From the NCBI GenBank assembly GCA_049366715.1, contig JBMNCQ010000004.1:100470-164469 (forward strand): a DNA stretch of 64,000 bases, read 5' to 3'. The number at the start of each line of letters is the position of its first letter. Within the stretch, counting starts at the first letter, position 1. The notes below the pieces were generated by a model. The model ran no database searches and was not told the DNA's origin. It was given only the letters and a program-made list of their open reading frames with translations. This document shows positions 26,753 through 45,879 of the stretch, in pieces. The stretch is from Peptococcaceae bacterium (GTDB taxonomy: Bacteria; Bacillota; Peptococcia; Peptococcales; BICA1-8). The position numbers and the translations under genes were made by a program.

Positions 26753-26763
26753 AGCTTACCCTC

Positions 26764-27483: not shown

Positions 27484-28032
27484 TTAAAAAATGGCGCCCC
27501 ACAATTTTGCCGCCGGAGCAGGAATCACTTCTACATCTACTAACAACCCGTTTTGGAGAACAAGGGCCTTGCCGGCATCGATACCTGCCTTGACAGCAGC
27601 TACATCTCCGGTAAAGGTGAAGTAGGCTTTACCGCCTAATCCACGGCCCAGACAAAGCTCCAGGGCTTGGATGTCTGCCGCTTTCAGCGCCGCATCGGCA
27701 GCAATTATCATGGAGGCCAGGGAAAAGGACTCCATGATCCCCAATGCTCCCGTTTCATCAGGCATGGTCGCACCTGTAATGGCCGGAAACACAGCTTCGT
27801 GAACATTGGGGAGAATAAAACTGTCGATCAGATATTCCCCGGCAGCTGCGCTGCCGGCGTTAATTGAGCTATCTACGGCGGCAACGTCTCCCTGAATGAC
27901 GGCGATATATTTTCCCGGACAGACGGGAGTCGCACTGACAACTTCAACTGAAGCTGTCTTCAGCAAGAGATCTGCCACATAAATTCCCCGGGCCACACTG
28001 GAAAGTTCAAGCATGCCTATTGCTCTATACAT
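27484..28032 (-). CDS. pduT: Tandem-domain BMC-T shell protein (PduT-like)
   Basis: Two BMC domains in 182 aa. The PVCPGK motif corresponds to the PduT Fe-S ligand Cys. Confidence 0.85.
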   Translation of the reverse strand: MYRAIGMLELSSVARGIYVADLLLKTASVEVVSATPVCPGKYIAVIQGDVAAVDSSINAGSAAAGEYLIDSFILPNVHEAVFPAITGATMPDETGALGIMESFSLASMIIAADAALKAADIQALELCLGRGLGGKAYFTFTGDVAAVKAGIDAGKALVLQNGLLVDVEVIPAPAAKLWGAIF

Positions 28033-29377: not shown

Positions 29378-29382
29378 ATTTC

Positions 29383-29643
29383 TTAAAAGGTACAGTCTTC
29401 ATCAATGATTCCCACAATAACCGCATCAATGGGGATATTGTCCTGGTCCAGCATCCTGCGGGCCGAACTGCCGGTACAAATCAAAACTCTCTCGCCGATA
29501 CCGGCCCCGATGGTATCGGCAGCTATAAGAAGGCGGCCGGCTTCAATGCCGCCCAGAACTTCCACCAACATGAATTTCAAGCCCCGGAGGGAATCGGCTT
29601 TTCTGGTGGACCAGATATGATCAATTACTTGGGCTGCGATCAT
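29383..29643 (-). CDS. eutN: BMC-P pentameric vertex protein (EutN/CcmL family)
   Basis: 86 aa, MIAAQVIDHIWSTRKADSLRGLKFMLVEVL..DAVIVGIID. Confidence 0.9.
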   Translation of the reverse strand: MIAAQVIDHIWSTRKADSLRGLKFMLVEVLGGIEAGRLLIAADTIGAGIGERVLICTGSSARRMLDQDNIPIDAVIVGIIDEDCTF

Positions 29644-29951
29644 AATTCCTCACCCTTTTTGGCCCCGGACAGTTTTTCTTTAATCTGATTAATTGCTGCT
29701 TCTACCGCCGCCGTATCGCCAAAGACAGCAATCATAATCAGATTCTGAGGACAATGGCCTTTAATATCCTCCACTACGACCCCCGCAGCCTTTTCAGCAA
29801 TATCGGCGGCAAAAACCATATCAATCAGCCGGCCCTGAATCAAACCGATGGCATCATAATTTACAATAGGGACGGTGGCCGGAGAGCTTTTGCGCCGCAG
29901 GAGCATATCCAGTGTTCCCCGGGACGGGGATTTGATCATTCGGTACTCCAT
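29640..29951 (-). CDS. Circularly permuted BMC-domain shell protein (EutS/PduU-like, short)
   Basis: AIGLIQGRLIDMVFAADIAEKAAGVVVEDI..IAVFGDTAAVEAAINQI aligns with the permuted PduU/EutS core. Confidence 0.7.
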   Translation of the reverse strand: MEYRMIKSPSRGTLDMLLRRKSSPATVPIVNYDAIGLIQGRLIDMVFAADIAEKAAGVVVEDIKGHCPQNLIMIAVFGDTAAVEAAINQIKEKLSGAKKGEEL

Positions 29952-29963
29952 GTAAACTCACTC

Positions 29964-30809
29964 CTATCTCAGGGCTTCCCGGGTGCAATTAAGCGCGATA
30001 CCCAAGGGTGTTACAAACATGGGGTTCTGCGGTTTATAAACGGGAAACCCGGTTCGTTGGGCGATAATATTTTCGATCCCCGCCAGACAGCAAGTTCCCC
30101 CGACCAGATAAACGGCTTCCACCTGGTAATCCTTGACGTGGCGGCTGATAATGGACGAAACTTTTTCTATGACAGGCCGTAATACAGGCAGCAATTCCCG
30201 CTGGTTTTGCGGATCCCGCTTATACAGGTCCGCATCGTCAAAGCTCATTTTATAGGCCCCGGCGATCACCAGGGAAAAATGCGTGCCGCCGGTAGGTTCA
30301 TCGGCAGCATAAATCACTCTGCTGTCCTGTAAGACGGCAATCCCGGTCGTGCCGCCGCCTATATCGACAATGGCTCCGTCTTTGATCTTTAGTACGGCAT
30401 TAGCTGCCGTCGGTTCATCCAGCAAACCGGTAATTTCAAAACCGGCCCCCTGAACCACGTGTTTAATCGCTCCCCCATCCAGGTTAAAGGTTCCCGGAGG
30501 CAGGGCTGCTGCTGCATAGATTAAGACTGTGTCCAGTTTTTCTTCCAGTTCCTGTTTTAATTCTTTGACGATCCTTATGGCACCGAGATAGTCCACCACC
30601 ATACCGTCTTTGACAACACCGGTCAAGCGGTAAGCACCGGCAACAGGCTGCTGGTTTTCATCAAGAACAGCCAGCACAATACAGGCAGTTCCCAGGTCAA
30701 CACCGGTATAATAAACGGAGGATTTTTTTAAAACAGGGGTTTTGATGACCTCCGCAAAACTACCCACAATTTCGTCACAATATTGAAAAACCGGATTTAT
30801 CATGTGCAT
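29964..30809 (-). CDS. eutJ: EutJ-like Hsp70/actin-fold chaperone
   Basis: GVDLGTACIV..IVDIGGGTTGIAV..YLVGGTCCLAGI ATPase motifs. Start set to the ATG at 30809, after GGGAGG. Confidence 0.85.
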   Translation of the reverse strand: MHMINPVFQYCDEIVGSFAEVIKTPVLKKSSVYYTGVDLGTACIVLAVLDENQQPVAGAYRLTGVVKDGMVVDYLGAIRIVKELKQELEEKLDTVLIYAAAALPPGTFNLDGGAIKHVVQGAGFEITGLLDEPTAANAVLKIKDGAIVDIGGGTTGIAVLQDSRVIYAADEPTGGTHFSLVIAGAYKMSFDDADLYKRDPQNQRELLPVLRPVIEKVSSIISRHVKDYQVEAVYLVGGTCCLAGIENIIAQRTGFPVYKPQNPMFVTPLGIALNCTREALR

Positions 30810-30953
30810 TTTTTCCTCCCTGACTTTTCTCCGCGTCACGGAGAGTATCTTCATAAACAACTTTCGGGCTTAAATTAATAAAATTTATGTCCTCATCTGC
30901 CCTTCCTTGATTTACTGCCGGGAAAAAATAAAGTAAATGTATCTATAAAAGAG

Positions 30954-31409
30954 CTATTTCTTGGCAGTTGTTTCCGGCAGACCGAATAAATAATCTTTTA
31001 AATCTGCCATACCTAGATTGTCTGGCAGAGAGATCGCAAAGTAAGGCTCAAAGACACCTGCTCTTTTCAACTGTTCCCTGGCCCGGGGGGCATTTTGCAC
31101 AGCTAAATCAATTTTGGTAATCACTCCCACAACAGGACAATTAAAGACTTTGGCAAAACCCGGCGGATAAACCTGAACAGGCCTGGATTGATCAACCAGA
31201 ATGAGCACACAGGACGCATCCTGAGCCAGGGCAATCAGATACCGGTACATCCCGGGGTTTTCGAGATACGCGCCCGGCGTATCAATGGTAGAGCGGCCAT
31301 AAATCACATCCTGGGTCTTTTTTAAAGGCAGAATACAGTCATTCAGCGCATTAATCAAAGTCGATTTGCCGGACTGAACCGGTCCCACCACCATAATCCG
31401 CTTTTTCAT
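30954..31409 (-). CDS. EutP/PduV-family small GTPase
   Basis: P-loop [16 protein letters not shown], 151 aa. Confidence 0.85.
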
Positions 31410-31759
31410 GTCCGGGTAATCCTGGCAGGAGTAAAGCCTAACAACTTTTCTAAAATATCATTAACGGCAGTCATGGCCGCTTCCACACTGGCCACATCAC
31501 CGGAAATAACCAGTGCTCCCGTAAACCGGTCCAGAAATCCGATCTCCACACCGGATGCTTTGGTGGCGATATCTGCGGCAATGATCGCCGTCTCACAGGG
31601 AGTAAGGGTTGCAATGCCAATGGCTCCCGTTTCTTCTATCCCCAGACGTTCATAGAGATCCCGGGCAGGTGCGGCTATGATATGAGCCAGCGTGACCTGT
31701 TTGCCGGGTACAGATTCCTGGATAATGCGTTTTTTGTTAAATTCAGCGGATCCGCTCAT
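31406..31759 (-). CDS. Circularly permuted BMC shell protein EutS/PduU
   Basis: [63 protein letters not shown] closely parallels EutS/PduU. Start moved to the ATG at 31759, after GGAGGG. Confidence 0.88.
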
Positions 31760-31784
31760 AAGATCCCTCCATCCTGCTAATCCT

Positions 31785-32768
31785 TTAATGCCTGATGATT
31801 TCTGCCTGTAAGCCATAACCCTTGATCAACTCTGCAATTTTAACCACCTCTGCTTCCGTAAAGCTCACATCCCCGCTGATGGCATATTCCAGATCCAATT
31901 GCTTGTATTTGCCGATACCCAGTTTATGATAAGGGAGCAGGTCAATCCCTTGAAAATTTTTATATATTTTAAAAGCTTGTAAAAACTCCACTGTTCTGCG
32001 GATGGTATCTTCACGATCATTCATGCCCTTGATCAGAGGCATCCGTACTTTAAGAGGAAAACCCCGGCGGATGAGTTCCGTCAGGTTACTCAAAATGCGT
32101 TCATTACGCACTCCTGTCAGCTCATAATGCCGCTCTGCATCAATATGCTTAAGATCATAGAGAATTAAGTCGCTAAAACGGGCCACCATCAGTAAGCGGT
32201 CCAGCTTTGCATATCCGCAGGTTTCAATTGCTGTATGGATTCCTATCCGCCGGCATTCCGCTAACAGGTTGACGGCAAATTCCAATTGGGCCGTAACTTC
32301 GCCCCCACCGAGAGTAACCCCTCCCCCGGAACTTTGGTAAAAAAGCGAATCCTCTTCAATAATCTCCATGACTTCAGAAATGGATTTATCTGCGCCAACA
32401 ATGGACAGAGCTTGTTGCGGACACGCAGCTTCGCATTTGCGGCATCCCACACAGTCAATGGTTCGCTTTACTTTATGACCGGGCCTTAGCAGGGTAGTGA
32501 TTCGCCCGCCCTCGGTTTGCTCCTGAAAATAATGGATATGCACAGGACAAACAGAAATACAGCTTCCGCAGTTGATGCAGAGATTTTCTTGAAACATAAC
32601 CTGGTATTTTCTTTCCAGTCCCTCGGGATTAGCACACCACTTACACCTGAGGGGACATCCTTTAAAAAAAATTAAAGTCCGCACCCCGGGTCCGTCATAT
32701 AGAGAATATTTCTGAACATTGAAGATTCTCGCTTTTCTTTCTAGGCCGTAACCAAGTTCTGTACGCAT
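31785..32768 (-). CDS. cutD: Glycyl-radical enzyme activating enzyme (choline TMA-lyase activase)
   Basis: Radical [11 protein letters not shown] plus two ferredoxin-like clusters ([24 protein letters not shown]). Lies immediately downstream of the GRE. Confidence 0.9.
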
Positions 32769-32837
32769 AATGTCCCCATCCCTTAAAAATACCTTCTGAA
32801 AAGTTAATCCTTTGCTTATTTAAAAATTATCGGTCAA

Positions 32838-35387
32838 TTAAAAATGGTCCAATACCGTCCTGCTGATAATTTCATCCTGGACTTCCTTGCACAGCTCTAC
32901 AAAGTAAGCACTGTATCCAGCCACGCGGATAATTAAATCCCGATACTGATCAGGCTTAAGCTGGGCTTTTTTCAATACTTCATTGTCCACATAGCTGAAT
33001 TGCATCTGGCCGTTACCGAGAATGGAGGCTGTCCTCAGCAAGGTAATCAGACCATTCTCACCTTCCGGAGTTTCCAAAATTCCCCGCAACAGCTTAAAAT
33101 TATGCACCATGCCAATATTCATCGCTTCCACATTCAACTTGCTGACGGACTTGATGATGGCTGTCGGACCCAGTTTATCAGCACCCTGAGTAGGGCTGAT
33201 CCCATCGGAAAGAGGGGTCCAGGCCAGACGCCCATTGGCTGAAGCACCGGTAATCTCCCCGATGGGCGTATTATTGGAAATGGAGAGAGTACCATGGGTG
33301 AAATGGGAATAAAGCATCTTAAAGCTGTTGTGCATCCGTTCAGTCCAGACAACAATATCGGCGGCAATCAAATCAGCGTAGTCGTCATCATTGCCGTATT
33401 TGGGGGCCTGGAGGCAATCGGTCCTGAGCCCTTCATACCCTGCAAAATTGACGGCCAAGGCATCCCTGACTTCTTTCAGGGCATATTTTTTTTCTTCAAA
33501 GACCAGCTTTTTAATGGCTGCCATGGAGTCTGCATAAGTTCCCAAACCGGAAAAAATCAGTCCGGGACCGTAGTTAATCAGCGCACCGCCGCCGGTGACA
33601 TCGGTGCCCTTTTCCATACAGCCTTCTACCAGCAGCGACATTAAGGGTTTCGGCACAAGTTCCCTGTGCACCCTCTGGCTAATAATCGTTCCAAGCGCAG
33701 ATAAACGGATAATATGTTCAATCTGCTTTTTAACGGCAGCGGCAAATTCCTCATAGGTCTTAAAATTGTCAAGATCCCCGGTGTCCAGCCCTTGCTGTGT
33801 TTGCTGCCATTTCATAATACCGCGGTTTAAAACAAATTCAATGGCAATTGGCCATTGGGTATAGCCGGTAGATGTCCACTGATAGATACGGCCGGATTTT
33901 TGCGGTTCAACACAGCCCATCAGACAGTAATCCCGGGCATCTTCCAGGGAGAATCCCTTGGCCAGCATCATTTTTATATGGGCATCATCAAAGTGACAGG
34001 CCGGAAAGCCTAGTCCTGCTTTAACAACATCCACAATTTTCTTTAAATATTTTTGCGGTGATTTGTTATGGATGCGGCAAGCCAGTGACGGCTGATACAT
34101 CTTGGTAAAGCGAACCGCATCCATAATCAGATAAGTTAAATCATTGGTTGCATCCCCGCCGGTCCGCTTTTGACCGCCAACGGTTAAATTAATAAAAGGC
34201 TGATAACCGGCGAAATATTTTGCGCCCAGTTCACTGGACAGCCACATAACTTCCGAGCATTTGATAAGAAAACACCCCAGCAGTTCAAAGGCTTCCAGTT
34301 TGTTCATACGCCCCGCTTCCAGATCGGCTTTGAACAGAGGGTAAATATATTGATCCAGACGTCCCAGGGAAATACCGGTCTGGTTTTCTTCCACCACAAA
34401 TAAAGACTGCAGCATCCAGATAGACTGGAGGGCTTCCTGAAAGGTACCGGGCGGATTGGCCGGTACACGGGTTAAAATACCGGAAATTTTGTACAGTTCT
34501 TCCTTGCGGCCGGTATCCTCTTCCCGGTCGGCCAGCTCCCGCGCATAGTCAGAAAGTCTTTGCGCATAGGCCAGAATACCGTCACAGGTTTCAATTTCCC
34601 CTTTATAAAAGTAAATCTTATCAAGATCCGCGGGATTTTCCGGAGATAGTTTGCTCAATCTCTCGGCAGCTTCCTGTCTGACACCGCCAATGCCTTTCGC
34701 GATAAGGATGATATCATAACCCGGGCAGGTGTCACCGCCGCCATTAATCTGATGATAGGAAAGATCACTAACAAAGGCTTCCCCCGCAAATGACCAGATA
34801 CCGGCTTCTTCATATTGCTGCTGACAAATTTCGTCTACACTGCGGCCTTCCCAAAAGGGGAAAATCTCTTCCCGTAAAATCTCCTTATCTTCTGCACTGA
34901 TCTGGAAGGGATCCTGGGGCCTGGTGGCCATAGTATCCAGTTCATCCCGGACCCATCTCCAGGCAATATCCGGGGACACAGCACCGGCCCGGGGTTTCCC
35001 GCAGGGATGCCCGACAATCAATTCATCTTTTTGAATGACTAAAGGCGCTGTCTCACAAGCCCTTCTAAAACACTTGGCCCGCAGCAGAATTTTGGGTAAG
35101 CCCGGATTTTCTCTGGTCACTTGGGTGAAAGCCCTGGCCCGGTAAGTACTGATACTGGGTTTAGCCTGTAAATAATTGGCCCGCAGCCGTTTTAAGCGCG
35201 GAGTCGGTCCTGTGATTTCCACATCATAAACAGGGTATTTGGTGGTAGTGGTATGATATACTGCAGCGTTTTGGGCAGAAAGTTCCCGGGAGATACCCTG
35301 AAACAGCTTCATGACAGCAGCCTTTTCTTCCGGGGACAGGTGCTTTGTTGCATCCGCAAATTTATTTGAAAATTCTGTAAGATCCAA
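32838..35387 (-). CDS. cutC: Choline trimethylamine-lyase (glycyl radical enzyme)
   Basis: 849 aa. Glycyl loop RVAGYSAYF (G824) and thiyl loop GCVEP (C492, E494). Y211, D219, F392, F398, T505 and Y509 equal D. alaskensis CutC Y208, D216, F389, F395, T502 and Y506 at a constant +3 offset. Confidence 0.92.
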
Positions 35388-35463
35388 CTTTTTTTCCCTC
35401 CTTACTTATCTAAATCAGCAGAGTAAGCTGCTTAATGATCTCTGCACAGTTACTGCACCGGTT

Positions 35464-36954
35464 TCAAAAATTGAGCTGCTCAAGTAATTTTTCCAACAGT
35501 TCTTTTAATTCATAATTTTCTCCGGGGGCAGGTCCTGTACTGTTTATTCCTCTAGTTGCAAAAGTTTCCGCAGACTGCACGCCTCCGGTTATATCCTCCG
35601 GTTGCCGCACACCATAGCCCACTTTGCGGATATTAATCAAATTCAGAGGCGAAACATTATCAGAAATAAATCCGCCTCCTGCCGCACCACAACCCAGGGT
35701 TAAAGCCGGGAAAAGATTCGTCGTGGCACCGATACCGCCTAATGACGCCGGAGTATTTACCAGTACCCTGGATACCGGTTTTTTCAGGGCAAATTCCCGA
35801 ATGACATCCTCATTACGGGAGTGAATAACCAGAGTATGCCCCCTACCTTCATTAATAAGCAATTCTATACATTTTTCACAAGCATTCTGCCAGTTCTTTT
35901 CCACGTAAAAGGCCAGAACAGGACAAAGCTTTTCCCTGGAATAAGGATTGGCGGGAGACACATATTTTTGTTCCGCAATCAATACTTTGGTATCTTTATC
36001 AGCATCAATTCCGCTGCGCCGGGCCAGCTCTACGGCTGATTTTCCCACAATCTCGGGATTGGGGCTGCCGTCAGAACGGAAAAAAAACCTGCCGAGCCGC
36101 TCCGCTTCTTGTCCCGACATGAAGTAAGCACCGCTTTTCCTGAGTTCTTGTCTGACCTCAGCGGCAATACATTCTTCAGCGACAATGGATTGTTCCGAAG
36201 CTGAGACAATTCCATAATCAAAGGTTCTGCTGGCAATAATATCGGCTACGGCTTTGCTTATGTCCGCCGAACGCTCTATGAAAGCCGGTCCGTTCCCCGG
36301 ACCGCCATAAATGGTCGGTTTGCCCGAAGCATATGCTGTCCGAACCAATTTAGGCACACCGGTAAGCAAAATCAGTGCCGTGTTCCGGTGATTCATTAAG
36401 GCCGCCGTACCGGCAACAGCCACTGTTCGCAAATAGCTGACAGCTCCCTTTGGCAGTCCCCGGGCTTCAGCAGCCTGTATCAAAATATCCAGGACTTTGC
36501 TAATGGTCTTTTGCGCCTTAGGATGGGGGGAAAATACAATAGCATTACCGGATTTTATGGCCAGCAGAGTTTTATAGATCGTGGTGGACACCGGGTTGGT
36601 TGCAGGAGGCACTGCGACAATCACACCTACGGGAACACCAATATCCAGGGTCTTCTTTTCTTTATCTTCAGAAATAATGCCGACCACTTTCATATCCCTG
36701 ATTTTTTGATAGAGAAAATCACTGACAAAAAGATTTTTGCTAAACTTGTCCTGCCATTTGCCGAATCCTGTCTCTGCAACGGACATCATGGCAAGCTCCC
36801 TGGCATGTTTAGCTGCTTCTGCCGCCATTTGCCGGACGATTCCGTCCAGTTTTTCCTGAGGGAAAGCAGCCAGTATCTTTTGCGCCTCCCGGGCGTTTTC
36901 TATCAGGATCCGAGCCTCTTGAACCGAAAGCAGGTCATGATCAATTCTCTGCAA
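35464..36954 (-). CDS. Aldehyde dehydrogenase paralog with catalytic Cys replaced by Ser
   Basis: Motif RTFDYGIVSASEQ, with the Ser codon TCA at 36202-36204. Start moved to the TTG at 36954 (MQRIDHDLLSVQEAR, parallel to METFDYDLQSVQGAR of the paralog), 7 nt after GGGGAG. C-terminal tail YELKELLEKLLEQL is amphipathic. Confidence 0.85.
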   Translation of the reverse strand: MQRIDHDLLSVQEARILIENAREAQKILAAFPQEKLDGIVRQMAAEAAKHARELAMMSVAETGFGKWQDKFSKNLFVSDFLYQKIRDMKVVGIISEDKEKKTLDIGVPVGVIVAVPPATNPVSTTIYKTLLAIKSGNAIVFSPHPKAQKTISKVLDILIQAAEARGLPKGAVSYLRTVAVAGTAALMNHRNTALILLTGVPKLVRTAYASGKPTIYGGPGNGPAFIERSADISKAVADIIASRTFDYGIVSASEQSIVAEECIAAEVRQELRKSGAYFMSGQEAERLGRFFFRSDGSPNPEIVGKSAVELARRSGIDADKDTKVLIAEQKYVSPANPYSREKLCPVLAFYVEKNWQNACEKCIELLINEGRGHTLVIHSRNEDVIREFALKKPVSRVLVNTPASLGGIGATTNLFPALTLGCGAAGGGFISDNVSPLNLINIRKVGYGVRQPEDITGGVQSAETFATRGINSTGPAPGENYELKELLEKLLEQLNF

Positions 36955-37004
36955 GTCCAATCTCCCCTTTCCCTTCCGAAGCAAAAACTTAACAAATCCG
37001 TTCT

Positions 37005-37295
37005 TTACCAATCGATAAAGTATTTCGCAATAATCTTCAGTACGTCGGGATGAGGCCGGGCGATGACATTAGAGCTATAGACCTGGCCTACCTTGCCGGC
37101 TTCCTCAATACCGGCCTCTACCGCAGTTCTTACCGCTGCCAGGTCACCCCGGACCACAACGGAAACCAAACCGGAGGCCACATTTTCATAGCCGATCAAC
37201 TCCACATCGGCGGCCTTGCACATGGCATCGGCAGCTTCCAGTACCGAAACCAGGCTGTATGTCTCGATAAAGCCCAGCGCATCATTTCTGCTCAA
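37005..37295 (-). CDS. BMC-H shell protein
   Basis: SRNDALGFIETYSLVSVLEAADAMCKAADV. Start set to the second TTG (37295), 6 nt after GGAAGGGGA. Confidence 0.88.
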   Translation of the reverse strand: MSRNDALGFIETYSLVSVLEAADAMCKAADVELIGYENVASGLVSVVVRGDLAAVRTAVEAGIEEAGKVGQVYSSNVIARPHPDVLKIIAKYFIDW

Positions 37296-37324
37296 GGGGA
37301 TTCCCCTTCCCAAATGAATTAAAA

Positions 37325-37624
37325 TTAATTCGCATCAATGTCATGTTTGGCAACAATCTTACCCACCCGGCTGACAGGACGCGGCATGACATGGGTGGCT
37401 GTCATCTCCCCAATGGCAGCGGCCCCTTTAACCCCTTGCTCTACAGCCGATCTGACCGCCGCAACATCCCCTTTTACCATAACCGTAACAAGACCTGAGC
37501 CCATATTTTCAAAAGAGACAAGAACAACATCAGCAGTTTTACACATAATGTCTACGGCTTGAATAGCCGGAACCATACCTTTTGTTTCAATAAGGCCTAA
37601 TGCTTCTTGGCCGGTATATTCCAT
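37325..37624 (-). CDS. BMC-H shell protein (first gene of the shell/enzyme block)
   Basis: [33 protein letters not shown]. Confidence 0.9.
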   Translation of the reverse strand: MEYTGQEALGLIETKGMVPAIQAVDIMCKTADVVLVSFENMGSGLVTVMVKGDVAAVRSAVEQGVKGAAAIGEMTATHVMPRPVSRVGKIVAKHDIDAN

Positions 37625-37673
37625 CGCACGAACTCCTTTTTTTTGCCGTCTTAAACTTCCGGGACCGTAAATA

Positions 37674-38885
37674 TTAATAAAGCTGCATTTTTAATTGTCC
37701 TTTATCTACAATACCTTCCAACCGTTTAATTTCCCGGCCCCGGTCTAAGACAAGAACTGCCGGTACCTGTCGGACAGCATATTTTGCGGCGAGATTTTTC
37801 TTGGATGCCAGATCAATCTTGACAATTTTATAGCCATTGCCCTCTTCAGTGTTTAATTGTTCCAATAAGGTGCTGAATTCTAAACTTTCATCGACGAAAG
37901 CATTAAAAAACAACAACAAAATCTTTTGATCACTTTGGAGCACCTGATCATGGTAACCATTAACCTCGTCAAGATACCTCTCCGCAGCCACAGCTGCGGT
38001 GGCACCGTCACCTGCCGCCGCAACAACCTGCCGGAGATATTTTACCCGGTTGTCGCCCGCCGCATAGATCCCGGCCAGATTGGTTTCCATGCGGTCATTA
38101 ACAGGCAGATATCCTCTTTTATCCATTTCAATTCCGCTATCCTTCAGGTAACCGGTGGAGGGAACCATCCCCACAAAGAAAAATACACCCTGACACGCTA
38201 ATTCTGTAGAGGCCCCTGTTTTAAGATTCTTAATTTTGACCCCTGCTACATTGTCTGCACCGATAACTTCCTCAATGGTAGAGTTCCAAATAAACGCCAT
38301 TTTTTCGTTATGAAAAGCCCTTTGGGCACTCACTTTATTACAATCCAGAATTCCTTCCTCATGGAGCACGATCACGGTAACTTTACGGGCAAACTTGGTA
38401 ATAAACATGCCTTCTTCGATGGCCTGATCACCACTGCCCACAACGACAACATCTTCTCCGGCAAAAAACTCGGCATCACAGGTAGCACAATAGGCAACTC
38501 CATTCCCCCGCAGTCTTTTTTCACCAGGGATATTCAGCAGGCGCGGTTCACTTCCGGAGGCAATAATAACGGCTTTGGCCGAAAATTCCTGTCCTTTCCT
38601 GGTCTTAACAATTTTCTCCTCTTGAGAGAAATCAACGCTGATTACTTCTCCTTTGAGAAATTCAACCCCAAAACCCTCCGCATGCTTCTGAAAATCCTTC
38701 ATTAAATCCGGGCCGCTGATTTGAAGATAGCCGGGGTAATTAACGATTTCCCGGGTGGTATCTACTAAACCGCCGATGCGCCCTTTATTAATCACGATTG
38801 TTTTCAGCTTAGCCCGGCCGCCGTAAATGGCGGCGGCAAGCCCGGCCGGACCCGCCCCGATTATGATTAAATCATAAGAAGTCAT
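37674..38885 (-). CDS. Thioredoxin-reductase-like flavoprotein fused to a Cys-less thioredoxin-fold domain
   Basis: GAGPAG FAD motif and redox-active CATCD. The second Rossmann motif reads VTVIVLHEEGILD where NADPH-type TrxR has HRRDxxRA. The C-terminal ~95 aa form a Trx fold without CxxC. Only 49 bp separate it from the first shell gene, with no terminator. Confidence 0.8.
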   Translation of the reverse strand: MTSYDLIIIGAGPAGLAAAIYGGRAKLKTIVINKGRIGGLVDTTREIVNYPGYLQISGPDLMKDFQKHAEGFGVEFLKGEVISVDFSQEEKIVKTRKGQEFSAKAVIIASGSEPRLLNIPGEKRLRGNGVAYCATCDAEFFAGEDVVVVGSGDQAIEEGMFITKFARKVTVIVLHEEGILDCNKVSAQRAFHNEKMAFIWNSTIEEVIGADNVAGVKIKNLKTGASTELACQGVFFFVGMVPSTGYLKDSGIEMDKRGYLPVNDRMETNLAGIYAAGDNRVKYLRQVVAAAGDGATAAVAAERYLDEVNGYHDQVLQSDQKILLLFFNAFVDESLEFSTLLEQLNTEEGNGYKIVKIDLASKKNLAAKYAVRQVPAVLVLDRGREIKRLEGIVDKGQLKMQLY

Positions 38886-38912
38886 GTATTCCACATCCCT
38901 TTAAACAGCAAT

Positions 38913-39239
38913 TTAGGCACCCAGAATTTCAGCAATTTTTTCTTCCACTTCCTCAGCTCCTGCGTTACCGGCAAGTTTTCCTTGATACTCACCCTCCCTG
39001 AAAAAAAGGATTTGCGGAACTCCTTTTAAGGAAAACCTCTGCAACAGACTCTTCTCTTCATCAACATCAACATAATAGAAACCAAATTCACCGTCATATT
39101 GAGGCTGCAATTCCTCCAACACAGGCACTACTTCTTTACATACATGGCAGTCCTTCCTGGAAAAAATAACCAGACAAGACGCACAATGGTCATAAATAAT
39201 TTCTTCAAAAAGGTTGACAGCCAACCGTTGTAAAGCCAT
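38913..39239 (-). CDS. Thioredoxin-family protein with atypical CHVC active site
   Basis: LVIFSRKDCHVCKEVVPVLEEL...LKGVPQILFF (cis-Pro motif), 108 aa. Confidence 0.8.
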   Translation of the reverse strand: MALQRLAVNLFEEIIYDHCASCLVIFSRKDCHVCKEVVPVLEELQPQYDGEFGFYYVDVDEEKSLLQRFSLKGVPQILFFREGEYQGKLAGNAGAEEVEEKIAEILGA

Positions 39240-39304
39240 ATTCCCACTCCTTAAAATTTTGCCTTAAAAATTAACTGTTAAATCTTAAGCGGCAGTATAC
39301 TTGT

Positions 39305-39343
39305 AAAAAGCAGCCATCAGAGTGCTACTTCCTGATAGCTGCT
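39305..39343 (-). terminator. Rho-independent terminator after the NPP-type gene
   Basis: On the - strand, AGCAGCTATCAG-N11-CTGATGGCTGCT (one mismatch) followed by TTTTT, 15 bp past the stop at 39358. Confidence 0.65.
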
Positions 39344-39357
39344 CAGGTCACAATCGA

Positions 39358-41409
39358 TCAAACATCTTCCGAAAAAATCTGATAAATTGGTGCACCTTCG
39401 CATTGGGCAGGATAACGTAAGCCCAGCAATGCCGCTACCGAGGGCGCCACATCCACTTGCCGGATAATCCGCTTTGTGGTAAATCCGGGCTTAATGCCGG
39501 GACCCGCCGCTACAAAAATCGGTGAAACGGAAGTCTCATAATATCCCTCTGAGGTGGAAATACTGTCACCATGCAATCTGTTGTATCCTTCTTCAACAGA
39601 GAAAAAGATGTCACCACATTCCGGTCCATGGGCACCGATTAACACAGCATCTTTATTCCTGAGGCAGATACCGACAACACGTTTACCTGTCCGGTGGTCC
39701 CGGTAATTATATAAATCACTGATTATTTGTTCCTCCAGTTCATATTTATCTTTAGGGTCCACAATACCATATTTATCACGGCCTTTAAGATTGATATAGA
39801 TATAGTTGCTGCGGATCTGCACAGCCCTGGTCCTTTCCCAATCTACTTCCCGCAGGGAATTGCCGTCTTCATCTTTTTTCAAGACCGTATAGCCCAGCTC
39901 TTCCATAACTTTTGTATTGAGGCCGCCATACTCCCCTAAAATAGGCGGAACATTTTCCCCGACGATCAGGCCGTGATCACTTACCAGTAAAATCGTCCAG
40001 CCTTCAGCCAACAAGGGCATGAATTCGCCCAGATAATCATCGGTCTGCCGGTAGAACTTTTCAATAAACCCTTGATAGGTTTTTTCCTCGGTATGATCCC
40101 ATTCAGGCAGCGTCTTAGCAAGATGCCACAACTGATGACCGGCACAATCAATATTGTGAAGATGGGAGAATACGACTTCATAACCCTTCTCTCTAATACA
40201 GTAATTCATGCAATCCGCCTGCCATTTATTGTATTGAACCCAGGAAGGTTCAAATATTTCCCGGACCAGCTCGTCATCTTCCCCGCCGATTAAGCTAACA
40301 GGCGGAACATGACCGATATTTTCCACAATTTCCTGATAGAGTGACTTAGGATGCCATAATTGATCATTAGAAATATCCAAAGCATTACTAATCCACAGCC
40401 TGACTTTTTCCCCGGCCGGATCAAGCTCTAAAATCTTCATAGAACGGCAGGCCGGCTTAGTGACTTCTTTTTTGGTAACATCATCAATAATTCCCGGCAC
40501 CATTTCACCCTTTTTTAAAGTAACAATAGGAGTTTCGGCTTTCTTATTTTTATAAATAGCCACCCGGTCGTATTCGCCGGCTGCATTTTTAAGAATTAAA
40601 GCCGGACGTCTCATTACACCGCCGGAAGTCAGCACGGTGAATTCTTTGGCTCCTTCCGGGGCATGGGCCCAACCTGCGGCATCTTTGAGGGGAGAGTTAA
40701 CGATATCATAGGCTACCTTACTGCCGATAACAACTTCCGTATCTTCATCATCCATAACATAGGTACGGACCTCACCGCCTTGACGGGCTGTATCACCCCA
40801 CCACAACTCCATCATTTCATCATCAATATCATCGTCTAAAGTATCTTCCAAATCAGTAATGATACAACCCACACCTGCCGGTTTATCCACCCTGGGTGCA
40901 TAACGCACTTCTTTAATCTCAGGTGCGGCCACGATCACTTTTTCCCAGTCAAGCTGGGCCACGCCCATATTGACCGAACCTGGCTGCGTACCATCCACAA
41001 CACTTAGATTTTCACTCTGGGAAGACGGGGGCCAGGAGCTCCCGGGCCAATGCCAGACCAGAGTTTTCATACCGGCTTCCGAGGTAATATTCCAAATTTG
41101 TTCTGCGGTGCAATTACGGGAGTCCATATTATAAACAACCGCATCCAGGCTCTCCGGAGATTGGCGCCAATAGCAGGTGATGCCATGGGTTCCCGGATAG
41201 GCACCGGTAGCAAGTGTCGTCCAGCAAGGAGGTGTGATCGTGGGGATTGCTCCCAGAAGGATTAAATCTTCTCGGGCCGCTCCCCGGTCAATTAATTTTT
41301 GCAGATTAGGCATTTTCCCTTCAGCCAGGTATTTCCGGCTGATTCTTGGATCCATCCCGTCGACCCCAACTACCAATAGTTTATTCGTAAGTCCTTTTCT
41401 CTTCATCAT
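39358..41409 (-). CDS. Alkaline-phosphatase-superfamily enzyme, NPP/type-I phosphodiesterase type, cytoplasmic (683 aa)
   Basis: Core motifs VVGVDGMDPR, Thr-nucleophile block IPTITPPCWTTLATGAYPGTHGI, HNIDCAGHQ and LLVSDHGL. No signal peptide and no sulfatase CxPxR motif. Confidence 0.75.
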   Translation of the reverse strand: MMKRKGLTNKLLVVGVDGMDPRISRKYLAEGKMPNLQKLIDRGAAREDLILLGAIPTITPPCWTTLATGAYPGTHGITCYWRQSPESLDAVVYNMDSRNCTAEQIWNITSEAGMKTLVWHWPGSSWPPSSQSENLSVVDGTQPGSVNMGVAQLDWEKVIVAAPEIKEVRYAPRVDKPAGVGCIITDLEDTLDDDIDDEMMELWWGDTARQGGEVRTYVMDDEDTEVVIGSKVAYDIVNSPLKDAAGWAHAPEGAKEFTVLTSGGVMRRPALILKNAAGEYDRVAIYKNKKAETPIVTLKKGEMVPGIIDDVTKKEVTKPACRSMKILELDPAGEKVRLWISNALDISNDQLWHPKSLYQEIVENIGHVPPVSLIGGEDDELVREIFEPSWVQYNKWQADCMNYCIREKGYEVVFSHLHNIDCAGHQLWHLAKTLPEWDHTEEKTYQGFIEKFYRQTDDYLGEFMPLLAEGWTILLVSDHGLIVGENVPPILGEYGGLNTKVMEELGYTVLKKDEDGNSLREVDWERTRAVQIRSNYIYINLKGRDKYGIVDPKDKYELEEQIISDLYNYRDHRTGKRVVGICLRNKDAVLIGAHGPECGDIFFSVEEGYNRLHGDSISTSEGYYETSVSPIFVAAGPGIKPGFTTKRIIRQVDVAPSVAALLGLRYPAQCEGAPIYQIFSEDV

Positions 41410-41946: not shown

Positions 41947-42459
41947 TTATTTTTCTCCTGCTGTTTTGTAGGCGGCATTAATCATATTCCCCGCAAATTT
42001 AAATTCCTTATTCTCCAAAACTTTATTAAGAGGCGCAAACTTTAAAGCCTCCACCGGGCACACCCTTACGCAGGCAGGCTGCAAACCCGCTTCTACCCTT
42101 TCCGTACAGAGACTGCATTTGTACATTTTATCCTCCAGGTCATAACGGGGAACCCCGAAAGGGCAGGCCAAGGCGCAGCTATGACACCCTATGCAGAGCT
42201 CTTTATTGACCAGTACGGCTTTGGTCTTAAGATTTTTTGTTATGGCTCCGGTGGGACAGCCCATAATGCAGGGACTGTCTTCACAGTGCAGACAGGAAGC
42301 CGAGATATAATGAATACTGCCTCCCTCTTCCACCTGATAGATTCTGCGGTTAGCGGGCTGTCCTTTTTCCGGATCAATATCATTCTGATCCATACAGGCC
42401 ACGGCACAAGCCCCGCAGCCGGAGCATATATTCAAATCCAGATAAATCGCCATTTCCAT
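41947..42459 (-). CDS. 4x[4Fe-4S] ferredoxin-type electron-transfer subunit (DmsB-like)
   Basis: Four Cys clusters (CSGCGACAVAC, CLHCEDSPCIMGCP, CIGCHSCALACP, CSLC..CVRVCP). Confidence 0.85.
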   Translation of the reverse strand: MEMAIYLDLNICSGCGACAVACMDQNDIDPEKGQPANRRIYQVEEGGSIHYISASCLHCEDSPCIMGCPTGAITKNLKTKAVLVNKELCIGCHSCALACPFGVPRYDLEDKMYKCSLCTERVEAGLQPACVRVCPVEALKFAPLNKVLENKEFKFAGNMINAAYKTAGEK

Positions 42460-44624
42460 TAGTTGCTGCCCCCTTCCTCAATTTTCTCCACCTTGCAAAG
42501 AACAGATTTAAATCCCGGAAATCCGGAAAGGGGATCGAGATAATCTCCTGCAAAGAGCAGGTTGACATCTGCCGCCGGATGACCATGGTACATATGGATA
42601 ACCCCCGGCTGGACCATCTGGGTCAGATTTGCTTTCACGATAATGGAATTCCGGGGTGTCGCCAAACGCACGGCTTCATCCTGCTTAATGCCCAGGCGCA
42701 AGGCATCATCAGGATTAAGGTCCGCCGCAGGGTTATTGGGACGCAAGCTGTTTGTCCAGGAAAGACGGAAAGTCCGGGAGTGAATGAACATGGGCAGTCT
42801 TGAACCCGTATTGAGAATATAAGGGTATTCCTGAGCCATTTCCGGGGTCCTTTCTCTACTGTATTTGGGCGGGATATAGGCAGGCAGGGCTTCAAACCCG
42901 GGGCGGCCTTCATATTTCTCCAAGATCTTGGATTTAAATTCAAACTTACCCGACGGTGTTTTAAACCCGCTGTCTACATACTTTCTCTCAGGTATCTGCA
43001 AAGGATTCGGCACAAACATTCCGCCCGGATGCTTTTTCAGTTCTTCCACCTTCATCCCACTAGGTTCCAGAATCCAGTCAATACTTGCTTCATAACCGGC
43101 CTGGAAAAGAGGGTCCTCAAGCCCCAGTTTTTCCGCTAGCCCATAAATAATGTCCGTGTCGGAGCGGGAATCATAAAGAGGCTCAATAGCAGGAGTCGTA
43201 AAAATAAGGTAGCCCATCCCCCAGCAGCGCATTTCACTCCGCTCCACCGAGGAACAAGCCGGCAGAACGATATCGGCATACCGGCAGGTATCGGTCATAA
43301 AAATATCTACATTAACAAAGAACTCAAGTTTTTGGAGACTCTCCAGCATGCCCTGGGAATCAGGCCACATCCGGTAATTGAGACCAAATCCGATCAGCCC
43401 TTTAACCGGATAAGGTTTTCCCGATTTGATCTGATACGGCAGTTCCATAGCCTGAGCCTCTTCATCAATGACTTCTGTCCAAACCGGGAATTTAGCGGCC
43501 CCGATTCTGGGTGCCATCTCATTCCACGGTTTAGGCTGAATAAATTCATGTTCCCGGGACAAAAAACGTCCCGGCTGGTGGATAAAACTCTGCGGCGCGA
43601 CAAAATTTCCGCCTTTCACATCATAGTTACCGGTTAGACCTACCAGAGAAAATATCGCCCGGTAATTTTGCACCCCATTGGTGTGATGTACCACAGGAGA
43701 TGCACTGGGCAGGATGGCTCCCGGCTTAACAGTTCCATACATCCGGGCTGCAGCCCGGATCTTTTCGGCAGGTACTCCTGTCAGTTCTTCCCCTTTCTCC
43801 GGCGGAAAGTTTTTGACATACTCCTGATACTCCTTAAACCCATAACAATAATTCGCTGTAAATTCCTGATCATACAGCTTTTCCTTAATCAGGACATGAG
43901 CCATGGCCAGAGCCAGGGCCCCGTCGGTACCGGGCCTGACCTGCAGATGGATATCGGCCTGGGCTGTAGTGGGTGTCTTCCGGGGATCCACCACAATGAG
44001 TTTCATTCCCCGCCCTTTACCCTTAAGAATCGCCCGGGCATTGCCGGGATTGGTATAAAAAGGGTTGGCACTCCAGACTAAGAGACAATTGGTATTTTTT
44101 AAATCCGGACCGCCCGCCCGCCCGAAAACAAGCTGCTGGGCCATAGCCGTCGCCCGGGCACAGGTACTGGATTCCGATAAATAATTAGGAGAGCCGAAAG
44201 AATGGGCCAGACGCTTTAAGTAAGGCCGGAACCATTTGCTGTAGCCGGCGAAAAAAGCCACCGATTCCGGACCGGATTCACTTTTAAAAGTATTGAATCT
44301 TTCCGCAATTGTCCCCAAAGCTTCATCCCAGGATATCGGCTCAAACTGGCCCGAACCCCGTTCCCCGCTTCTCTTTAAAGGAGTTTTTAAACGTTCCTCA
44401 TGATACACGTACTGGCGGGTGGCGGCCCCTTTAGAACACAATTTTCCCTGACTATACGGGTGTGCCTCACTGCCCTCAACCTTGATGATCCTGCCGTCTT
44501 TCACAAAGAGATCCAGCCCGCACTGTGTGGTGGGATCACAGATCGCACAAATAGATTTTCTGATTTGAATACCGGTCCGGGGACCGGGAATCTTCCCTTT
44601 TAATAATTGCTCAACATCTTTCAC
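42459..44624 (-). CDS. Molybdopterin (bis-PGD) oxidoreductase catalytic subunit, no Tat signal
   Basis: N-terminal Fe-S motif CAICDPTTQCG..CSKG, 721 aa with Mo-oxidoreductase and C-terminal dinucleotide-binding regions. No RRxFLK leader. Overlaps both neighbours. Confidence 0.85.
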   Translation of the reverse strand: MKDVEQLLKGKIPGPRTGIQIRKSICAICDPTTQCGLDLFVKDGRIIKVEGSEAHPYSQGKLCSKGAATRQYVYHEERLKTPLKRSGERGSGQFEPISWDEALGTIAERFNTFKSESGPESVAFFAGYSKWFRPYLKRLAHSFGSPNYLSESSTCARATAMAQQLVFGRAGGPDLKNTNCLLVWSANPFYTNPGNARAILKGKGRGMKLIVVDPRKTPTTAQADIHLQVRPGTDGALALAMAHVLIKEKLYDQEFTANYCYGFKEYQEYVKNFPPEKGEELTGVPAEKIRAAARMYGTVKPGAILPSASPVVHHTNGVQNYRAIFSLVGLTGNYDVKGGNFVAPQSFIHQPGRFLSREHEFIQPKPWNEMAPRIGAAKFPVWTEVIDEEAQAMELPYQIKSGKPYPVKGLIGFGLNYRMWPDSQGMLESLQKLEFFVNVDIFMTDTCRYADIVLPACSSVERSEMRCWGMGYLIFTTPAIEPLYDSRSDTDIIYGLAEKLGLEDPLFQAGYEASIDWILEPSGMKVEELKKHPGGMFVPNPLQIPERKYVDSGFKTPSGKFEFKSKILEKYEGRPGFEALPAYIPPKYSRERTPEMAQEYPYILNTGSRLPMFIHSRTFRLSWTNSLRPNNPAADLNPDDALRLGIKQDEAVRLATPRNSIIVKANLTQMVQPGVIHMYHGHPAADVNLLFAGDYLDPLSGFPGFKSVLCKVEKIEEGGSN

Positions 44625-45879
44625 CCTTTTCCACCTCCATTAGGATCTTATCGATTAAAATATTTTGCATCACTGGTGCCGAATATCCCGGAGCAGGGGT
44701 ATTCTGCAGCAATGCTTTGATCATTCCGGTCTTTAAAGCACCGGACGAGGTATAATCATCCACGAAATTGGCCCCGGTCAAGCGTTCATCCTGCCAGAAT
44801 AACTGACTGAACCTCTGCCCGTCATACCTTTTTTCGGTTCTGGTATAGTTCCGGACATCACCGATTCCTACAAAATCCATCCCCATAAAATGAGTAATAT
44901 TATGGGGAATATTCCCGGGTAATGCTTCCGCCAACCCGGCCATATTCCGTCCTGCCGTGCGTCCCTGGTAACGGCCATTAGCCCACAGCCCGATGATCTG
45001 CTGTTCCCCCGTAAGAAGATTCGTACCCTGAGCTACGTCGCCCGCCGCATAAACCCCCGGGACATTGGTCCTCATATACTTATCCACCAGCACCCCTTGC
45101 TGACATTGAATCTGGCCGCGGTCAATAAAATTAATGTTGGCCCGCACACCGATACACATGACTAAAAAATCCGCTGCTTCTCCTTCCGGGCTCTCTCCGA
45201 AATAGGCCTTAATCCCCCCCGCTGTTTCTTCAATCTTTTTGATGGCGGCACCGAATTTTAACTTTATTCCCTTTTTCACTAAACGGTCTTCAATCACTTC
45301 GGCACAATCCCGGTGGGCAGCTAAAGGAAAGATGTACTCTGCTAAATCGGCTAAAGTTACTTCCAAACCGGCTTTGTAGAAAGTCTCCACGAGCTTGATG
45401 CCTACCATTGAAGCACCGATTATCAGGGCTTTCTGCGGCCTCTGAGCCAGAACCTCTTTCAGCCGGACAGCATCCTCTACCGTTCTCATGACATAAACCT
45501 TGTTGGAGTCGATTCCCGGAATGGGCGGTAAAAAAGGGGCCGCCCCCGCGGCAATCAAGCATTGGTCAAATTGAAGCTCAAACCCCCCTTGATTTGCGAC
45601 CACCCTTTCCGAAGCATCCAGCTTGATTACAGGTGAATCCGGATGCACATCTGCCCGGTATGTTTGATAAATCTCGTCTCCATTTCCATAAGGAAAAAGG
45701 CCCGGAAAGTCAATTTTTCCCGCTACATAATAGGTTGTTAACATGGGATTGGCTACCGGCCATTGATTATCTGTGAAAATATGAATTTCCCCGGTATAGC
45801 CGCTTTCCCGCAGCGCTTTAAGGCACTCGGCACCGGCACAGCCATTACCGATTATGGCAATTTTTTTTCCAGCCTCCAA
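44611..45879 (-). CDS. FAD/NAD(P)H pyridine-nucleotide-disulfide-oxidoreductase-fold reductase, no redox Cys
   Basis: IAIIGNGCAGAE and IIGASMVGIKLVE Rossmann motifs. ANPMLT replaces the CoADR/Nox Cys motif. 14-nt overlap with the Mo subunit gene. Confidence 0.8.
   Translation of the reverse strand: MEAGKKIAIIGNGCAGAECLKALRESGYTGEIHIFTDNQWPVANPMLTTYYVAGKIDFPGLFPYGNGDEIYQTYRADVHPDSPVIKLDASERVVANQGGFELQFDQCLIAAGAAPFLPPIPGIDSNKVYVMRTVEDAVRLKEVLAQRPQKALIIGASMVGIKLVETFYKAGLEVTLADLAEYIFPLAAHRDCAEVIEDRLVKKGIKLKFGAAIKKIEETAGGIKAYFGESPEGEAADFLVMCIGVRANINFIDRGQIQCQQGVLVDKYMRTNVPGVYAAGDVAQGTNLLTGEQQIIGLWANGRYQGRTAGRNMAGLAEALPGNIPHNITHFMGMDFVGIGDVRNYTRTEKRYDGQRFSQLFWQDERLTGANFVDDYTSSGALKTGMIKALLQNTPAPGYSAPVMQNILIDKILMEVEKGERC

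Follow-up and report, generated by a model that had tools for sequence, protein, structure and literature searches.

We analysed a 64,000-nucleotide stretch of contig JBMNCQ010000004.1 from a Peptococcaceae bacterium (assembly GCA_049366715.1), referred to below as the window, in which a gene for a small thioredoxin (trx) and one for an atypical thioredoxin reductase (trxR) stand between a gene for a phosphodiesterase-like (PDE-like) enzyme and an operon for a choline-utilisation (cut) bacterial microcompartment (BMC). We lean towards the view that trx and trxR form a paralogous, pathway-dedicated thioredoxin system that belongs to a mobile cassette centred on the PDE-like gene and serves the PDE-like enzyme. 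The pair is probably not a repair module for shell or cargo proteins, the role offered by an initial annotation of the same DNA. The features on which the argument turns are the following:

39358-41409, minus strand: gene for a 683-aa PDE-like enzyme of the NPP/alkaline-phosphatase superfamily (PF01663, 110.5 bits)
39303-39344, minus strand: terminator-like hairpin in the interval between the PDE-like gene and trx (GCAGCTATCAG...CTGATGGCTGC and a U-run)
38913-39239, minus strand: trx, for a 108-aa thioredoxin (Trx108; PF00085, 58.7 bits) with C31-H-V-C34 and the cis-proline motif GVPQ
37674-38885, minus strand: trxR, for a 403-aa flavoprotein of the low-molecular-weight thioredoxin reductase (TrxR) type with a C-terminal thioredoxin (Trx) fold; motifs GxGxxG, CATC, GSGDQA and HEEGILD
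37677-37958, minus strand: the C-terminal Trx-fold domain of the reductase, residues ~310-403 (PF00085, 33 bits)
37625-37673, minus strand: 49-bp spacer between trxR and the first shell gene, with the ribosome-binding site AAAGGAG and without a hairpin or sigma-70-like site
23701-37624, minus strand: cut (GRM1-type) choline-utilisation microcompartment operon with CutC, CutD and shell genes

Support for the cassette comes from comparison with about 100 related loci (cited by L number where they have to be told apart). In a reductase-centred survey of species-representative genomes, onto which the window's proteins were mapped, 38 loci were found, about 25 of them with the fusion-type reductase; the genes around additional homologues were inspected as well. 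The gene for the CHVC thioredoxin adjoins the reductase gene in almost every locus, and the commonest companion of the pair is the PDE-like gene, not a shell gene: a PDE-family gene lies within 10 kb of the reductase gene in about 20 of about 27 distinct loci, and in most loci an orthologue (85-92% identical) or paralogue (36-54%) of the window's PDE-like protein is encoded just upstream of the pair. The hosts are Desulfosporosinus, Desulfitobacterium, Desulforamulus, Clostridium beijerinckii and Propionispora. Both reductase copies of D. orientis (L043, L044), both of those of Desulfitobacterium sp. Sab5 (L041, L042) and the one on a Desulforamulus-type contig (L045) are PDE-linked, with no BMC gene within 8-10 kb. 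In C. beijerinckii, the PDE-Trx-TrxR triad has an SsuA/TauA-type ABC transporter ahead of it and no BMC gene nearby, and the triad is also found in the Negativicute Propionispora vibrioides.

A PDE-centred survey of metagenomes gave 80 loci, 55 of which extend at least 2.5 kb downstream of the PDE-like gene. Among these 55, the fusion reductase is present in 22 and shell genes in 11, and only three have both; shell genes occur without the reductase in eight loci, and the reductase without shell genes in 19. These counts speak against the proposal, made in the initial annotation, of a disulfide-reducing module dedicated to the glycyl-radical-enzyme microcompartment. Trx and TrxR are both absent from eight of the 11 metagenomic loci that have PDE-like and shell genes. 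In L066 and L067, the order is LysR, PDE, BMC-H, BMC-H, CutC, CutD, with no Trx genes, and the PDE-like gene also stands beside cut loci without the Trx pair in L069-L072, L076 and L099. It follows from the survey counts that the PDE-like gene is the hub, next to which cut loci and the Trx pair occur for the most part independently of each other. On this distribution, the trx/trxR pair is a portable two-gene unit, mostly without any BMC.

The usual partners within the cassette are a LysR regulator, an EamA exporter and an uptake transporter (BCCT, MFS or SsuA-type ABC). In D. fructosivorans, D. orientis and D. acidiphilus, the PDE-like gene is directly preceded by genes for LysR, EamA, a small open reading frame (ORF) and an uptake transporter, which is of the MFS type in D. 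acidiphilus and otherwise BCCT. Because of this arrangement elsewhere, we assign the window genes at 18880-23396 to the rest of the cassette:

21708-23396, minus strand: BCCT transporter (from Pfam)
20391-21353, minus strand: LysR regulator (from Pfam)
19199-20194, minus strand: EamA exporter (from Pfam)
18880-19185, minus strand: conserved 101-aa ORF (from synteny)

The cassette is thus split in the window by the 14-kb cut operon. Judged by these genes, what the window's lineage carries is the BCCT-transporter version of the cassette, set against the cut operon. Multiplied modules are seen as well: L124 (3326-13000) has two PDE-Trx-TrxR triads in tandem, L125 has three PDE-like paralogues in a row, and module duplication is also recorded under L112. 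These tandem modules suggest substrate diversification.

By gene content and profile scores, the genes downstream of trxR are a genuine, complete cut microcompartment locus. The TIGR04394 score of CutC is 1537.6 bits (cut-off 1050) and the TIGR04395 score of CutD 506 bits (cut-off 360); the operon reads BMC-H (twice), aldehyde dehydrogenase, CutC, CutD, BMC, PduV/EutP, EutJ-like, BMC, PduS-like, BMC-T, EutQ, BMC, aldehyde dehydrogenase, PduL, BMC-H, with a PduT-like gene also present. The position of the trx/trxR pair relative to such operons is variable. It stands 45-205 bp ahead of the first BMC-H gene in the window, L001, L002, L007 and L009; in L008, L010 and L055 an opposite-strand gene for a kinase of ~300 aa intervenes between trxR and BMC-H; and in L003, L017 and D. 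acidiphilus (L132) the pair is behind the operon. D. nitroreducens, D. lacus and D. acidiphilus share one gene order: after the last cut genes (PduL, BMC-H) come a small ORF, EamA and LysR on the opposite strand, and then the transporter, PDE, Trx and TrxR genes, which leaves the reductase farthest from the shell genes. No cut or BMC genes were found within 8-10 kb on either side of the pair in D. orientis (L043/L044) or D. fructosivorans (L039); all Desulfosporosinus genomes reportedly carry a cut cluster (PMC4453576). Trx (108 aa) and reductase (402-407 aa) equal their non-BMC orthologues in length and at their termini, and therefore neither has an added encapsulation peptide. Because the position next to the cut operon is not conserved and no encapsulation peptide is present, we do not retain the shell or cargo repair role.

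Several side observations bear on these neighbourhoods. The intervening kinase of L010 (11333-12247, minus strand) is a 304-aa protein of the APH/choline-kinase type, with 92 bits on GntI and 49 bits on ThiK, both under cut-off. L008, L010 and L055 also have an extra EamA-like gene between CutC and CutD. In D. acidiphilus SJ4 (L132), an IS110-family transposase gene (7752-8993, minus strand) lies between the PDE-like gene and trx, which fits a recombination-prone region.

The intergenic anatomy of the window was re-examined with these arrangements at hand. The gaps are as the initial annotation gave them, 27 bp (38886-38912) between trx and trxR and 49 bp (37625-37673) between trxR and the shell gene, and the terminator that it placed upstream of trx is likewise present as a 14-bp stem at ~39308-39344 followed by UUUUU. 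This hairpin, 3′ of the PDE-like gene, folds with -20.8 kcal/mol (z = -3.3 relative to shuffles). Its sequence is conserved in 13 related loci, including C. beijerinckii, where it follows the orthologous PDE-like gene; the same stem is seen in L001-L004, L007, L008, L010, L017, L039, L040, L043 and C. beijerinckii L047. The pattern GCAGCTATCAG-N6-11-CTGATAGCTGC plus a T-run is kept even between Peptococcaceae and C. beijerinckii. This is more conservation than simple termination would require; the element may double as a palindrome bound by a protein, or the cassette may just have been transferred horizontally in recent times.

The 49-bp gap was correctly said to lack a terminator: its fold, at -5.5 kcal/mol, is less stable than that of any shuffle. 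Neither this spacer nor the coding strand of the 118 bp ahead of trx yielded a sigma-70-like site. Since the junction of trxR with the shell gene has neither a terminator- nor a sigma-70-like element, read-through is plausible in the window and in L001, where the gap between trxR and BMC-H is a similar 45 bp, and in the window transcription of trx-trxR probably continues into the shell genes. In other loci (L005, L008, L010, L011, L018, L019, L043, L044, L046 and L055), trxR is followed by a terminator of its own. Given these terminators and the variable position of the pair, the junction in the window looks like a local rearrangement that removed a terminator, not like ancestral operon design. 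A motif common to L002, L007 and L009, AAAAGTGACAATCCTTAG ... TATATTATTGAGGGG, just before BMC-H, could be the cut operon's own promoter. The initial annotation thus stands in its description of a thioredoxin and an atypical TrxR with possible read-through into the shell genes, whereas its microcompartment-dedicated repair function and its comparison of the reductase with flavin-containing thioredoxin reductases that rely on ferredoxin (FFTRs, discussed below) are not supported.

Trx108 is a 108-aa CHVC thioredoxin, as first described (ORF 38913-39239, minus strand; 58.7 bits on PF00085, cut-off 23.5), with a Trx fold, the CxxC pair C31-H-V-C34 and a conserved cis-proline motif, GVPQ. It scores 51.5 bits on TIGR01068, under the cut-off of 96.8, and its active site reads DCHVC, not the canonical WCGPC. 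CHVC is found in 24 of 26 aligned family members, and the two most distant relatives (41% and 38% identity) read CQVC and CDIC. The helix at the N-terminus is the one with which the fold normally begins. Residues 19-22, where the second beta-strand starts, hold a further CxxC-like pair, C19-A-S-C22; many homologues have NCEPC here, and NGEPC, NEEAC and NCEPS are also seen. Because the C19/C22 pair is not kept in all members, it is probably not functional.

The reductase is, by sequence and fold, a low-molecular-weight TrxR. The initial annotation's flavoprotein of about 403 aa with a CATCD motif corresponds to 403 aa from the ATG at 38885, with C133-A-T-C136-D; a start at the in-frame GTG 38894 would lengthen it to 406 aa, and the ATG is favoured because homologues begin MxNxYDLIIIG. 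The protein scores 167.9 bits on Pyr_redox_2 and, at 341.0 bits, narrowly misses the TIGR01292 cut-off of 343.45. The FAD fingerprint GxGxxG is present as IIGAGPAG (residues 8-15, with G10, G12, P13 and G15 invariant), C133-A-T-C136-D is invariant in all homologues, and GxGxxA is kept as GSGDQA (residues 150-155), which aligns with GGGNTA of E. coli TrxB. In phmmer, the NAD(P)H-type thioredoxin reductase (NTR) of B. cereus scores 286.8 bits (7aaw); 5j60 scores 177.8 bits, the clostridial FFTR of C. acetobutylicum 111.6 bits (6gna; 108-112 bits over 6gna-6gnd) and the D. vulgaris TRi 91 bits (5nii). Identity to the best solved structures is 43-45%. Membership of TIGR03143 (AhpF homologue) was considered and rejected: only the first 312 of the 555 model positions match, with 345.8 bits against a cut-off of 687.65.

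What sets the reductase apart is its dinucleotide pocket. The absence of the NADPH motif was borne out by direct alignment with E. coli TrxB and AhpF, in which HEEGILD, preceded by a 2-residue insertion, takes the place of HRRDGFR in TrxB and of EFAPEMK in AhpF. HRRxxxR is substituted in every fusion-type homologue examined; close members (at least 70% identity) keep H(D/E)(E/K)G(I/V)LD, and the reductase of L020 (54% identical) reads HDPGVVD. The arginines that bind the 2′-phosphate, R176, R177 and R181 in E. coli numbering, are replaced by E, E and D. By the established rule, a Rossmann fold whose second beta-strand is followed by an acidic residue excludes the 2′-phosphate and favours NAD(H). 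With E, E and D in this pocket, NADH is therefore predicted to be the electron donor, and the substitutions point to NADH, not to a loss of dinucleotide binding.

The extra C-terminal Trx fold without a CxxC was also correctly noted: residues 310-400 score 33 bits on PF00085, and AlphaFold2 gives this region a beta-alpha-beta Trx topology with pLDDT 85-91. There is no cysteine after residue 231; at the position of WCGPC the fused fold reads FVDES, with the family pattern (V/I/N)(N/D/T)ES. Since it is cysteine-free in every member, it cannot be catalytic or carry electrons. The domain is rare: in 1.84 billion proteins, only 15 representative clusters match at E<=1e-10, the full-length matches being fusions of ~407-412 aa and the remainder short fragments. 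BLASTP found no similarity between Trx108 and the fused fold, and the tail therefore did not arise by recent duplication of the gene next to it. Docking or regulation would be the obvious guess for its role, for which the AlphaFold2 model (mean pLDDT 68, pTM 0.59) is too weak to serve as support: it is mediocre owing to a shallow alignment, in which no member is less than 73% identical.

The PDE-like enzyme has the marks of a cytoplasmic hydrolase with an intact bimetal site. Its bimetal and nucleophile residues (D17, T59, D421, H425, D478, H479 and H613) are invariant in 40 homologues, and so are three cysteines, C100, C182 and C670. Among five paralogues of 36-54% identity, C100 and C182 are kept in all five and C670 in four. 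The protein is unusually conserved across distant Firmicutes (86% identity in C. beijerinckii, 85% in Propionispora and 68% in Sporobacter). Foldseek ranks PafA, ENPP1/3/6/7 and PhnA highest, though their identity to it is only 10-12%. There is no signal peptide, and the catalytic Asp17 lies near the N-terminus; the substrate must therefore be imported, which fits the BCCT, MFS or SsuA-type ABC transporter that is always encoded nearby.

The repeated neighbours of the PDE-like gene are cut loci, choline- or sulfonate-type transporters, a choline-kinase/APH-type kinase and a sulfite-reductase operon. The last is found in Sporobacter termitidis, where the PDE-like gene heads an operon with an O-acetylhomoserine-sulfhydrylase-like gene (Cys/Met-metabolism, pyridoxal-phosphate-dependent) and genes for a sulfite reductase (sulfite_red_C, 140 bits), TusA, a canonical thioredoxin, ThiS, ThiF and a JAB protease. 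Sporobacter-type loci (L049 9001-15258, L091 5800-8700) present a context of sulfur assimilation by way of sulfur-carrier proteins, and in them an SsuA-family ABC transporter is divergent from the PDE operon. The simplest reconciliation of these neighbours is that the PDE-like enzyme hydrolyses an imported choline ester: phosphocholine-type esters would fit its fold, and choline-O-sulfate would fit the sulfur contexts.

From the anatomy, the motifs and the synteny statistics, which are observed, we infer an electron donor, a thioredoxin target and a substrate as follows. Electrons would pass from NADH, the predicted donor, to FAD, to Cys133/Cys136 of the reductase and on to Trx108, which would reduce a cytosolic target; the likeliest target would be the PDE-like enzyme or a covalent intermediate of its reaction. 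The thioredoxin system would thus either keep the cysteines of the PDE-like enzyme reduced or resolve that intermediate, and the enzyme would free choline from an ester taken up by the cell, for instance choline-O-sulfate or phosphocholine. Such release of choline would explain why the PDE-like gene, and not the Trx pair, is the recurrent neighbour of cut loci.

Several points weigh against this scheme. The link between Trx108 and the PDE-like enzyme is hypothetical, and a need for a reductant is not known for NPP-type hydrolases. The strong, conserved hairpin between the PDE-like gene and trx means that the two may not be co-transcribed. The PDE-like gene occurs without the Trx pair in 33 of the 55 metagenomic loci, and conversely no PDE-like gene was found in the 6-10 kb upstream of the pair in L011, L013, L016, L018, L019 and L046 (D. 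dichloroeliminans). In the window and L001, the pair is contiguous with the shell genes, with nothing detectable between, and adjacency to cut loci recurs in about ten Desulfosporosinus-type loci, which makes some link of the pair to choline metabolism likely. The AlphaFold2 model of the PDE-like enzyme (pLDDT 74, pTM 0.80) has low confidence around residues 55-61, 73-99 and 174-215, and around C100 and C182 it is too uncertain to place these cysteines relative to each other or to the active site.

Of the other explanations, the one closest to the initial annotation is that the pair is a disulfide-reducing system reserved for the choline microcompartment, sharing a transcript with the shell genes and keeping the thiols of CutC or CutD, the PduT cluster or the PduS-like flavoprotein in the reduced state. 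We consider this improbable. In its favour, the terminator sets the pair apart from its upstream gene, the 49-bp gap (45 bp in L001) has no hairpin or promoter-like site, and the pair is directly ahead of BMC-H in the window, L001, L002, L007, L009 and L056. Against it, most occurrences of the pair have no BMC near them, and eight cut loci have the PDE-like gene but not TrxR. In D. acidiphilus, D. nitroreducens, D. lacus, D. orientis and D. fructosivorans, the pair follows the cut operon or stands apart from it, and L008 and L010 have both a trxR terminator and an opposite-strand gene before BMC-H. Neither protein has an N- or C-terminal segment beyond those of its non-BMC orthologues, and thioredoxin is never mentioned in the survey paper on cut clusters (PMC4453576). 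A general or stress thioredoxin system, one of many paralogues whose closeness to cut and PDE-like genes has no specific meaning, is in our estimation unlikely, if less so. Paralogy is common: two or three paralogues of the reductase occur in single genomes, seven trx genes are present in D. orientis (bioRxiv 10.1101/2024.09.27.615472), two to four TrxBs are common in Clostridia (PMC10880999), and stand-alone pairs lie among housekeeping-type genes in D. dichloroeliminans (L046), L011, L016, L018 and L019. However, the linkage to the PDE-like gene holds across Peptococcaceae, Clostridium and Negativicutes and for paralogues diverged by 36-90%, including tandem triads; the CHVC site and the cysteine-free fused domain are specialised and narrowly distributed; and the LysR, EamA and uptake transporter partners indicate a substrate-specific function.

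Two further alternatives concern the chemistry. The reductase might be ferredoxin-dependent, as the initial annotation suggested by analogy with FFTRs, or otherwise independent of pyridine nucleotides; we hold this unlikely. It belongs to the same superfamily as the FFTRs, HRRxxxR is missing in every family member, missing NAD(P)H motifs are the criterion in the literature for non-NTRs (PMC10880999), and the host is a strict anaerobe rich in ferredoxins; like the FFTRs, the reductase occurs in anaerobic Firmicutes with several TrxBs. Non-NTRs are, however, defined by the loss of both GxGxxA and HRRxxxR, and FFTRs are described as lacking both (PMC10880999); in the window reductase only HRRxxxR is lost, and GxGxxA is kept as GSGDQA. 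The analogy is also weakened by the phmmer scores (287 bits for the B. cereus NTR as opposed to 112 for the clostridial FFTR 6gna and 91 for TRi 5nii), by the specific replacement of the arginines with E, E and D in the 2′-phosphate pocket, which favours NADH, and by a tail that is a Trx fold and not the aromatic C-terminal tail of FFTRs. More far-reaching, and in our view quite improbable, is the idea that the PDE-like enzyme, the CHVC thioredoxin and the NADH-type reductase together perform an undescribed, thioredoxin-dependent reductive cleavage of imported organosulfate esters in anaerobes; choline-O-sulfate would be the best-fitting substrate, with choline and sulfite as products. A thiosulfonate on an enzyme cysteine would be resolved by thioredoxin, as in PAPS reductase, and ATP-dependent sulfate activation would be bypassed. 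Such a reaction would explain the link to cut loci, whose microcompartments would use the choline product, the BCCT and SsuA/TauA-type transporters of the cassette, the place of the PDE-like gene at the head of the Sporobacter sulfite-reductase/sulfur-carrier operon and the three invariant cysteines.

Compared with known systems, the pathway-dedicated thioredoxin system that we favour has its closest functional precedent, by analogy, in the trxA/trxB pairs of grd clusters and in the multiple clostridial Trx systems (PMC6778437, PMC10880999). Dedicated trxA/trxB pairs occur in glycine/betaine reductase clusters (PMC6778437), and atypical thioredoxins with their own reductases are known in sulfate reducers (bioRxiv 10.1101/2024.09.27.615472). 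In the grd (glycine/sarcosine/betaine reductase) clusters of Clostridia and Peptococcaceae the partner is a selenoprotein reductase, whereas in the window it is an NPP/alkaline-phosphatase-superfamily hydrolase-like enzyme. With the low-molecular-weight TrxBs (B. cereus 7AAW, D. radiodurans 2Q7V and E. coli TrxB) the window reductase shares the two Rossmann domains, GxGxxG, CATC and GxGxxA; it differs in HEEGILD after the 2-residue insertion and in the extra cysteine-free Trx fold of ~95 aa. Its domain order, a TrxR core followed by a C-terminal Trx fold, is that of plant and cyanobacterial NTRC and of the Mycobacterium leprae TR-Trx, and the NTRC-type structures 7p9d and 9vv4 are among its fold matches. 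Unlike in those proteins, the fused domain has no CxxC or any other cysteine, and a separate thioredoxin gene adjoins in almost every locus.

The window has a complete cut (GRM1) operon, encoding CutC and CutD, shell proteins and aldehyde dehydrogenases as well as PduL, PduS-like and PduT-like proteins, but Trx and TrxR are not conserved components of such loci, being absent from 8 of the 11 metagenomic ones with the PDE-like gene and variable in position in the rest. Choline-O-sulfate utilisation loci encode the sulfatase betC with a LysR regulator and a binding protein. The cassette resembles them in combining a hydrolase of the alkaline-phosphatase superfamily with LysR and a quaternary-amine- or sulfonate-type transporter, and the choline-specific NPPs ENPP6 and ENPP7 are among the fold matches of the PDE-like enzyme. 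This enzyme differs from betC-type sulfatases in being a PF01663 protein with a Thr nucleophile, not a formylglycine enzyme of PF00884, and its identity to solved NPPs is 10-12%. A literature search found no paper on this reductase architecture, the CHVC thioredoxin or the cassette, nothing relevant on thioredoxin in cut/GRM1 loci, and nothing relevant on the PDE-like family beside cutC or on choline sulfatase with thioredoxin. Homologues are named in databases as 'thioredoxin-disulfide reductase' or 'FAD-dependent oxidoreductase' for the reductase and 'alkaline phosphatase family protein' for the PDE-like enzyme; an exact-sequence look-up of the window reductase returned no record.

Had the initial annotation been right, glycyl-radical microcompartments would possess a built-in thiol-repair system, a possibility against which the comparative evidence argues. 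What emerges in its place is a so far uncharacterised TrxR variant, whose dinucleotide pocket is acidic, whose Trx-fold tail is redox-dead and whose cognate thioredoxin has a CHVC site, in a widespread and unstudied cassette that couples a thioredoxin system to a very highly conserved enzyme of the alkaline-phosphatase superfamily. The more interesting object is this PDE-like enzyme, with its possible dependence on thioredoxin. It is the PDE-like enzyme, not the Trx pair, that recurs beside cut loci, including gut-type metagenome contigs, which makes it a candidate for an unrecognised route from esterified precursors to choline and hence to trimethylamine. The links to sulfonate-type transporters and sulfite reductase also touch on how strict anaerobes obtain sulfur from organosulfur esters.

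Among the remaining contents of the window, neither grd genes nor a canonical TrxR were found. Rfam scans of the window and four related loci gave no riboswitch or leader near the cassette, the sole match being an unrelated c-di-GMP-I riboswitch in L048. Beyond a 537-bp non-coding gap from the PDE-like gene lies a further group of redox genes:

41947-45879, minus strand: operon of three genes for a flavoprotein, a molybdopterin oxidoreductase and a 4Fe-4S protein

The flavoprotein of this trio is a PadH-like NADH flavoprotein (229 bits on NF045765), and the molybdopterin oxidoreductase resembles both the Fdh alpha subunit (330 bits) and PhsA (294 bits), with both scores under cut-off.

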